Positions 1 to 2,434 of a DNA stretch of 32,379 nt are shown here, piece by piece; position 1 is the first letter of the stretch, and each line of letters opens with the position of its first letter. Below the pieces are notes generated by a model. That model saw only the letters and a list, made by a program, of their open reading frames with translations, had not been told where the DNA came from and ran no database searches. Location of the stretch: the UHGV virus genome UHGV-0235014. One strand, 5' to 3'. Origin of the DNA: a virus. The translations under genes and the position numbers were made by a program.

Positions 1-196
1 ACTCGTTAGCTACTAACTCTTTATTAACTGTGGTGGCAGCAATTTCGGCACCACCTTTATTATTAAAAATGTCGTTCGAATACTGACATTTTCCATCTGC
101 ATGCACATATAAAATATCATATGTCTCTGTATCGTAATCACCACTTATGTCTCTGATAACAATTCCTGGCTTCAATGATTTAATTTTCTTGTCCAT
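1..196 (-). CDS. hypothetical protein, 5' portion only (3' end beyond window); AT-rich accessory gene downstream of N
   Basis: Minus-strand ORF starting ATG at 196..194 with GAGGTGA SD 5 nt upstream; N-terminus MDKKIKSLKPGIVIRDISGDYDTETYDILYVHADGK...; open to window edge; AT-rich composition unlike neighbouring N gene. Confidence 0.45.
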   Translation of the reverse strand, partial: MDKKIKSLKPGIVIRDISGDYDTETYDILYVHADGKCQYSNDIFNNKGGAEIAATTVNKELVANE

Positions 197-250
197 ATAT
201 CACCTCAAATAAGTGGTTTGCTGCGAAAATAAATATGCTTAAGTTACCTG

Positions 251-388
251 TTATTTATCCCACCAAGTTCCATATCTATCTATCCAGTTACACCAATCAT
301 CGACACTCCATTTTGCTGTGTCGCATTTTGGCAAATGGCATGAATATCTACCTTCTTTGTAAAGTCGGCGTTTGACTTTCTTGAGCAT
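251..388 (-). CDS. small Cys/Trp-rich hypothetical protein (45 aa)
   Basis: ATG 388..386 nine nt after N stop, SD-like GAGGTGA upstream; translation MLKKVKRRLYKEGRYSCHLPKCDTAKWSVDDWCNWIDRYGTWWDK; below ORF-track size cutoff; not recognised. Confidence 0.35.
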   Translation of the reverse strand: MLKKVKRRLYKEGRYSCHLPKCDTAKWSVDDWCNWIDRYGTWWDK

Positions 389-396
389 GGCTCACC

Positions 397-729
397 TCAA
401 TCGTAATAAGCCGGAATTGATTTTCCGCGTTGCTTCTGGCGGCCTGAGCAAGTCACACCCATTTCACTCCGTGGCTTGCTGTACCATGTGCGCTGATTCT
501 TGCGCTCAATACGTTGCAGGTTGCTTTCAATCTGTTCGTGGTATTCAGCCAGCACTGTAAGGTCTATTGGATTCAGTGCGCTTTCTACTCGTGATTTCGG
601 TTTGCGATTCAGCGAGAGAATAGGGCGGTTAACTGGTTTTGCGCTTACCCCAACCAACAGGGGATTTGCTGCTTTCCATTGAGCCTGTTTCTCTGCGCGA
701 CGTTCGCGGCGGCGTGTTTGTGCATCCAT
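397..729 (-). CDS. N: transcription antitermination protein N (lambda-type)
   Basis: Translation from internal Met MDAQTRRRERRAEKQAQWKAANPLLVGVSAKPVNRPILSLNRKPKSRVESALNPIDLTVLAEYH... matches lambda N as I recall it, including the Arg-rich N-terminal motif; nutL lies upstream on the same strand. Confidence 0.9.
   Translation of the reverse strand: MDAQTRRRERRAEKQAQWKAANPLLVGVSAKPVNRPILSLNRKPKSRVESALNPIDLTVLAEYHEQIESNLQRIERKNQRTWYSKPRSEMGVTCSGRQKQRGKSIPAYYD

Positions 730-1081: not shown

Positions 1082-2434
<1,353 letters not shown>

Follow-up and report, generated by a model that had tools for sequence, protein, structure and literature searches.

The first 388 positions of virus genome UHGV-0235014 hold two small minus-strand open reading frames (ORFs), here called ORF-A and ORF-B, directly behind the gene for a lambda-type N antiterminator. 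By the window we mean the whole stretch of 32,379 nucleotides that was analysed. Our reading, held with moderate confidence, is that the two genes are the first cassettes of a hypervariable slot between N and cIII/kil, and that they are delayed-early accessory genes, driven from the promoter pL, whose products are small soluble binders. The surrounding DNA is, judging from its sequence, an Sf6/P22-like prophage with 434-type immunity. The early-left operons of P22-like phages contain about 20 genes, most of them without known function, the known ones being those for recombination, kil, ral, and cIII (PMC8022706). What we describe is ordinary lambdoid mosaicism, with accessory cassettes of a familiar type. 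Useful additions are the correct family for ORF-A, the complete length of ORF-B together with its synteny, the linker at which cassettes are joined, and a fusion of the ORF-A domain, DUF5484, to a phage DNA polymerase.

Two protein-coding genes behind N

The first-pass annotation, made from the letters of the DNA, had reported two small AT-rich ORFs behind N in the pL operon, each preceded by a Shine–Dalgarno (SD) sequence, and this observation was confirmed in every particular. Both lie on the minus strand and the element GAGGTG occurs twice, once ahead of each. The G+C fraction is 0.347 over positions 1-196, 0.333 in the 54-nt spacer (197-250) behind ORF-A, and 0.391 in ORF-A itself, whereas N reaches 0.508 and the window as a whole 0.470; the two genes thus stand at 35–39% versus 51% for N. 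Between the N stop codon and the ORF-A start codon there are only 8 nt, a spacing compatible with translational coupling, and the SD of ORF-B (206-201) falls within the spacer.

Sequence comparison shows that ORF-A and ORF-B are genuine protein-coding genes and more than chance ORFs, because ORF-A scores as a DUF5484 protein and is matched by tblastn, with its frame kept, in 1,053 phage records, ORF-B has homologs, and the ratio of nonsynonymous to synonymous polymorphism (pN/pS) is below 1. Rough pN/pS values were about 0.2–0.45 for ORF-A and 0.32 for ORF-B, both from few variants. These counts were redone after a recombinant haplotype and indel variants had contaminated a first count.

Positions 1-400 of the window are 100% identical in the complete genomes of Escherichia coli SCU-124 and A42. 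Extending ORF-B leftward, as the annotation had proposed, gave a full length of 87 aa in the identical SCU-124 prophage (WP_052934929.1; L002:7933-8196), the last 22 codons lying to the left of the window. The gene order in SCU-124 is cI, N, ORF-A, ORF-B, ORF-C, DUF2528, cIII, kil, and a RecT-type recombination module. ORF-A was left without annotation by the Prokaryotic Genome Annotation Pipeline (PGAP) in all four genomes inspected, namely SCU-124 (L002:8251-8388), MS1657, PM06121, and 160-11H1.

ORF-A belongs by sequence to the DUF5484 family

By its sequence, ORF-A is a member of DUF5484, the family of T4 gp55.4, and not an orphan. With 44.5 bits it clears the 27-bit cutoff of Pfam PF17583 (DUF5484; E=1.2e-11), residues 5-42 aligning to positions 3-41 of the 43 in the model, and it matches phrog_1871 at E=1e-21. 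It is also 96% identical to gene 36 of Shigella phage Sf6, which occupies the same place behind N and was labelled by the Sf6 authors ‘similar to phage T4 gene Orf55.4’. The earlier remark that neither protein was recognisable was therefore wrong for ORF-A. Neither ORF-A nor ORF-B matches a known fold.

Relatives of ORF-A are numerous and mostly distant. The 1,053 phage records matched by tblastn divide into about 10 lambdoid or P22-like records at >80% identity and about 1,040 records at <60%, and among the matches listed the latter come mostly from T4-like Straboviridae of Escherichia, Klebsiella, Shigella, Yersinia, Enterobacter, and Citrobacter. In the source records these relatives are named ‘gp55.4’, ‘DUF5484’ or ‘hypothetical’. 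ORF-A DNA was found in 725 of 5,426 complete E. coli genomes (~13%).

The family alignment has K6, D23, T24, and W27 invariant, with R7, L9, G13, Y15, P20, K21, and W32 conserved in at least 90% of members. ORF-A fits the family core K..L.K.G.Y....PK.DT.KWSV.DW...ID..G.W, whose members are about 42–48 aa long. Compared with T4-type gp55.4 it has the same length and the motif PKxDTxKWSVxDW...ID..G.W at about 50% identity, and it differs in the three Cys and the extra Trp that mark the lambdoid subgroup. The first-pass description of ORF-A as ‘Cys/Trp-rich’ is accurate as a count (3 Cys, 5 Trp), but the cysteines are a peculiarity of this lineage: T4-type members have L/V, G, and I in place of C17, C22, and C33, and most of them lack Cys altogether. 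Because of these replacements a zinc site is not a feature of the DUF5484 family, and the idea of a Cys-rich, zinc-binding protein was rejected since the ligands are not conserved across homologs.

The AlphaFold2 (AF2) model of ORF-A is compact, with a predicted local distance difference test (pLDDT) score of 90, and the protein is hydrophilic (grand average of hydropathy, GRAVY, -1.14). The idea that it might be related to the Rpb6, RpoK or omega subunit of RNA polymerase, by resemblance to the Rpb6 assembly domain, was considered and left without support, and a profile search of contigs with the ORF-A alignment confirmed no relative. Transcripts of T2 gp55.4 are among those that remain abundant at the early-to-middle stage (bioRxiv 10.64898/2026.03.01.708804). 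This transcript list was the sole mention of gp55.4 that we found in the literature, and searches for DUF7167 and for the T4 55.x genes gave nothing useful. Membership in DUF5484 says nothing about mechanism, because the whole family is without an assigned function.

A DUF5484 extension on an N4-like DNA polymerase

In Pectobacterium phage CB4 the DUF5484 motif also forms the final ~40 aa of the DNA polymerase (L005:2980-3099), and relatives of CB4 have it too. By tblastn the polymerase matches ORF-A at E=7e-4, and its tail keeps all nine columns that are invariant in a seven-sequence DUF5484 alignment. Because the polymerases of phage N4 and of the closer Klebsiella phage FBKp27 stop 5-12 residues past the end of the CB4 similarity, the motif in CB4 is a C-terminal extension, a domain fusion. 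The same comparison ruled out the possibility that the match is simply the normal C-terminus of a PolA protein.

The fusion points, weakly, to a replication-connected target for ORF-A. Such a target, the most specific proposal for ORF-A, would suit a replisome-associated module that binds a factor for replication or repair, of host or phage origin, and acts where phage DNA is being replicated, free-standing in T4-like and lambdoid phages but in Cbunavirus tethered to the polymerase. The nine of nine invariant columns in the CB4-type extension speak for this, as do the location of the gene in T4-type phages, within the early/middle cluster from nrd to gene 55, and that of lambdoid ORF-A at the head of an operon for recombination and anti-RecBCD functions. 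We nonetheless consider it unlikely, given that the fusion was a single event in one genus, detected at an E-value of only 7e-4, that the neighbourhood of the ORF-A homologue in other T4-like genera is unrelated to replication, and that a structure comparison found no similarity between ORF-A and known replisome-binding modules.

ORF-B and its small acidic family

The full-length ORF-B protein from SCU-124 matches phrog_33140 from end to end (E=4.7e-50), residues 1-87 aligning to positions 1-88 of the 88 in the profile. Its protein homologs share 31–52% identity. A word-indexed protein search returned four clusters, and an exhaustive HMMER search of 1.84 billion representatives returned 14 matches at E<=0.001, of which 11 are proteins or fragments of 58-117 aa. 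The remaining three were rejected as homologs because they are repeat proteins whose scores are summed over many weak repeats. One of these, P0012 (5,511 aa), is an SprB-type repeat adhesin in which 21 stretches add up to E=5e-17, although it shares only the hairpin-like motif ‘GTYDVTVTDANGC’; the case shows how repeats inflate whole-sequence E-values. The others, P0019 and P0022, are low-complexity repeat proteins.

Seven aligned members, 31–41% identical to the first, have 14 invariant columns. ORF-B has an isoelectric point (pI) of 4.7, a net charge of -4, and a GRAVY of -0.46, and its family is uniformly acidic (pI 4.2–5.2, net charge -4 to -12). The AF2 model (pLDDT 86) consists of three strands, two helices, and a strand. 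A YegP/DUF1508 (UPF0339) fold for the N-terminal half was rejected on a profile/structure test. Nothing beyond noise was obtained for ORF-B or ORF-C in a Pfam scan at E<=10, profile searches of PDB sequences gave only noise (E>0.5), and NCBIfam and PADLOC-DB v2 scans of ORF-A, ORF-B, and ORF-C produced no match (E<=1 for PADLOC).

Only eight of the 5,426 complete E. coli genomes contain ORF-B DNA, which occupies 10 places in them, and its position is regular. Across E. coli prophages that differ in immunity region and represent two unrelated N alleles, the gene stands either behind N with an 8-nt gap or behind N and ORF-A together. It directly follows N in EC28, E1, and loci L006 and L019-L023. 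Spacing from N to ORF-B is unchanged in L019-L023, and spacing from N to ORF-A is unchanged behind an unrelated N allele in L024-L028. Relatives with 43–49% identity in IMG/VR and Logan contigs are co-oriented and, where neighbours could be recognised, have cI and/or N upstream and kil, RecT or Sf6 g33-like genes downstream. The annotation had asked whether the ORFs are conserved in related prophages; both are.

Outside lambdoid early-left operons the ORF-B family was found in one Klebsiella myovirus group only. The homolog there, gp201 of Klebsiella phage vB_KpnM_KB57 (Mydovirus), is 52% identical to ORF-B over residues 9-58 (tblastn) and 39% over its full length, and has the same predicted fold (Foldseek template modelling score, TM, 0.75). 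It differs in setting, as KB57 is a virulent 143-kb myovirus that carries the gene in a block of small hypothetical genes and not in a pL operon.

A hypervariable slot with a fixed linker

The slot behind N was compared across 70 IMG/VR loci that contain ORF-A (cassettes in L044-L112), and the next gene was scored in each. Most often this gene encodes an orf28-like peptide, MEEEFEEF..., as in the Sf6 arrangement (33 of 70). ORF-C, of 156 aa, directly follows ORF-A in 12 loci, an 83-aa protein without a family (MEFHESAI...) in 11, ORF-B in six, a 60-aa protein in three, and a DUF7446 protein in two. Three further genes were each seen once: one for a membrane protein like that of Sf6 gene 34, one for a Cys-rich (CxxC) protein of 62 aa whose zinc-finger matches all fall below threshold, and one for a protein with nucleotide modification associated domain 5 (Nmad5). 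Beyond the 70 loci, one E. coli genome has a DUF7167 protein after ORF-A, so that at least 10 different genes occupy this place. The RefSeq name ‘DUF7167 family protein’ seen beside ORF-A belongs to a downstream alternative cassette gene and not to ORF-A.

Two of these alternatives merit description. In Sf6, where the order is N, gene 36 (the equivalent of ORF-A), orf28, ral, and gene 34, orf28 is an unannotated minus-strand ORF (L001:2428-2514) for a very acidic peptide of 28 aa (MEEEFEEFEEHPQDVMEQYQDYPYDYDY); ral was detected in 31 of 34 orf28 loci. ORF-C follows ORF-B in SCU-124 (L002:7349-7819, minus strand, 156 aa), where it matches phrog_1636 and no Pfam family. Since it directly follows ORF-A in 12 other loci, ORF-C counts as a further independent cassette of the N-proximal slot. 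ORF-A and ORF-B are likewise independent modules, as each occurs without the other.

The cassettes share a joint, TTTCGCAGCAAACCACTTATTTGAGGTGA[G/T]ATATG. The core of this linker was recovered by a regular expression in 57 of the 70 loci, on 56 occasions exactly 54 nt past the ORF-A stop codon, and it precedes seven different first genes. It also precedes orf28 in Sf6 (L001 around 2512-2550), and another copy lies at L007:2697-2731. In EC28 and E1 a lambda-type N gene really ends with the same bases, and the SD and ATG of ORF-B come next, which is why we take the spacer at 197-250 to contain the relic of an N 3' end. This linker is probably a homologous-recombination joint for the swapping of cassettes, one that supplies each of them with the same SD and start codon. 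Like the conserved boundary sequences that are classical in the modular model of lambdoid genomes (annotated as bsq in Sf6), it is a short conserved joint flanking unrelated genes, in a setting of AT-rich composition; it differs from them in that its origin could be traced, to an N 3'-end remnant with a shared SD and ATG placed 54 nt from ORF-A.

The relic has left its mark on some ORF-A alleles. In eight of the 70 loci ORF-A is 54 aa long and ends in the relic (..YFRGKPLI or ..YFRSKPLI). The sole variant of this type that was aligned, from PM06121 (L010 around 2697-2760), has a 19-bp deletion at the ORF-A stop codon that joins ORF-A to the N relic. The frame stays open in the 19-bp-deletion variants, and only the last two residues of ORF-A are replaced, the core being untouched.

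Alleles of this kind raise the possibility that the genes are nearly neutral, selfish passengers moved about by linkers, with an untranslated ORF-A as the extreme case. ORF-B is very rare, the slot accepts at least 10 alternatives, the arrangement of N and ORF-B without ORF-A exists, PGAP skips ORF-A in the inspected genomes, and some ORF-A alleles are truncated or carry the deletion that changes the C-terminus. We judge this quite improbable, however, though less so for the rare ORF-B, as the ORF-A proteins of lambdoid and T4-like phages share about 50% identity and a set of invariant residues, ORF-B is conserved to 31–49% identity with its synteny kept, pN/pS is below 1, and both proteins give confident folded models. 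The deletion variants themselves remain open frames with a change confined to the last two residues.

The annotation had also likened the place downstream of N to that of ral in lambda, and the comparison is apt, since ORF-B sits where Sf6 has orf28 and ral. ORF-B shares with Ral and orf28 the operon, the strand, the slot, and the linker, and all are small and early, early expression being in the case of ORF-B our inference. Across 102 loci, which are not independent samples, ORF-B and ral/orf28 are mutually exclusive: ral was found in none of 35 ORF-B loci and in 31 other loci. We read this exclusivity as the sharing of a slot and not of a function, because most other cassettes avoid ral as well; the 83-aa cassette never co-occurs with it, ORF-C does so in one of 17 loci, and the Nmad5 cassette in one of two.

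A stronger interpretation of the same pattern is that ORF-B functionally replaces Ral, or orf28 and Ral, as an early anti-restriction protein, maybe an acidic mimic or modulator that acts on type I or other restriction systems. Its exact orf28-ral position behind the same linker, the absence of both ral and orf28 from all 35 ORF-B loci, the uniform acidity of the family, and a presumed synthesis early, before replication, would all agree with this. The proposal, the most specific one for ORF-B, is unlikely in our view even so, because ORF-B resembles neither Ral nor any anti-restriction family in Pfam and has no fold match, and because the avoidance of ral is common to most other cassettes, including the 83-aa protein and ORF-C, in loci that are not independent. 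The net charge of ORF-B is, moreover, only -4, which is far from DNA mimics of the Ocr or ArdA type.

Proposed expression and possible function

We hypothesize that transcription would start at pL and that N antitermination would carry it through ORF-A and ORF-B. Translation would proceed from the strong SD sequences, with that of ORF-A possibly coupled to N. Since expression would depend on pL and N, the genes should be silent in the lysogen and become active in the delayed-early phase once the prophage is induced or a new cell infected. We picture each product as a small, soluble protein that lacks an enzymatic fold and would act through stoichiometric binding of a target conserved in Enterobacterales. 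The target would be a component of the host or of host defence, and the role one in lytic growth, as counter-defence or host takeover. We propose a binder because the proteins are very small and non-enzymatic and are carried by virulent as well as temperate phages of Enterobacterales.

Several points weigh against this reading. We infer pL expression of both genes from their position only, and although a scan of the minus strand between pL and the genes found no sigma-70-like promoter, a consensus scan is weak evidence of absence. Net charge in the ORF-A family ranges from -2 to +7, and as it is not conserved no simple binding mode can be proposed. The rarity of ORF-B (0.15% of E. coli genomes) would also fit a passenger that is close to neutral. 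The polymerase fusion, being a single event in one genus, could stem from the accidental loss of a stop codon, and a literature search on DUF5484 turned up nothing.

The first-pass annotation had offered exclusion and anti-restriction genes as candidates. SieB is a membrane protein expressed in the lysogen. The sieB gene of lambda and P22 lies in this general region, close to N in the early-left operon (PMC8022706), and the AT-rich composition of ORF-A and ORF-B resembles that of morons, so that sieB-like superinfection exclusion or defence genes expressed in the lysogen might be expected here. This is highly unlikely for ORF-A and ORF-B. Both are hydrophilic, without Pfam similarity to SieB and without a PADLOC match, and in the scan described above no promoter-like site other than pL lies upstream of them on their strand. 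They are co-oriented with N and packed behind it, with the 8-nt gap and an SD laid over the N stop codon. The carriers of ORF-A, in addition, are mostly virulent T4-like phages that have no lysogen to protect.

As for anti-restriction, neither protein matched Ral, SieB, PADLOC proteins or known anti-restriction folds in sequence or fold. By Pfam, Ral was found neither for ORF-B (E<=10) nor for ORF-A (E<=1), and a tblastn search with Sf6 Ral found none in the ORF-B loci. An anti-restriction function for either gene would thus be read from position alone. The earlier interpretation is on the whole partly supported: it was right about the genes, the operon, and the slot, and the function it suggested is without support from homology.

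A more far-reaching version of our hypothesis would make DUF5484 a widespread effector domain, common to T4-like, lambdoid and, in fusion with the DNA polymerase, N4-like phages of Enterobacterales, which neutralises or hijacks a conserved host factor of replication or transcription. It would make ORF-B an acidic counter-defence substitute for Ral, and the slot with its linker a counter-defence locus with exchangeable content, comparable to the P2 and P4 defence hotspots. We regard this combination as improbable.

Neighbouring features of the window

Coordinates of the features discussed are collected in Table 1. N was identified from the RefSeq annotation of the identical SCU-124 locus together with megablast matches to the N genes of lambda, 434, and Sf6, and the flank spanning N and cI has megablast matches to phage 434, lambda imm434, and Sf6. 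Besides the 434-like cI, the window encodes a small, putatively secreted protein at the rex position, replication, nin, and lysis genes, and P22-type virion genes. An Rfam scan of positions 1-1200 at E<=1 gave no match, and a tRNA search found none in the window.

The gene at the rex position (1082-1558, minus strand) lies between cI and N, where lambda has rexAB. Its start is probably at an internal MIRIAALL..., and its small product, a homolog of Sf6 gene 38, has a signal-peptide-like N-terminus and matches no Pfam family. This gene is a candidate lysogen-expressed moron.

Table 1 Features at the N-proximal end of the early-left operon and in the immunity region of the window.
Feature	Positions	Strand	Description
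ORF-A	251..388	minus	45 aa, MLKKVKRRLYKEGRYSCHLPKCDTAKWSVDDWCNWIDRYGTWWDK; ATG 388-386, stop 253-251
ORF-B	1..196	minus	ATG 196-194, frame open to base 1; codons 1-65 of 87
N antiterminator gene	397..729	minus	lambda-type, 110 aa, MDAQTRRRERR...; promoter-proximal gene of the pL operon
N stop and ORF-A SD	393..399	minus	N stop (TGA) 399-397, overlapped by GAGGTG 398-393
Cassette linker	194..228	minus	TTTCGCAGCAAACCACTTATTTGAGGTGATATATG, 35 nt; N 3'-end remnant (..SKPLI, stop), GAGGTG SD 206-201, and ATG of the next gene
cI	1483-2115		434-type

Significance

At present the value of these results is mainly one of annotation. They provide two real small genes, one of them not called by PGAP in the four genomes inspected, and a documented joint between cassettes, while an anti-restriction label has as yet no basis. 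If ORF-A or ORF-B proved to be a counter-defence or host-takeover factor, this would give a function to a Pfam domain of unknown function that is carried by >1,000 phages and, in the case of ORF-A, by ~13% of the complete E. coli genomes. It would then also be worth searching the N-proximal slot, by way of its fixed linker and with at least 10 alternative cassettes already seen, for more small effectors.

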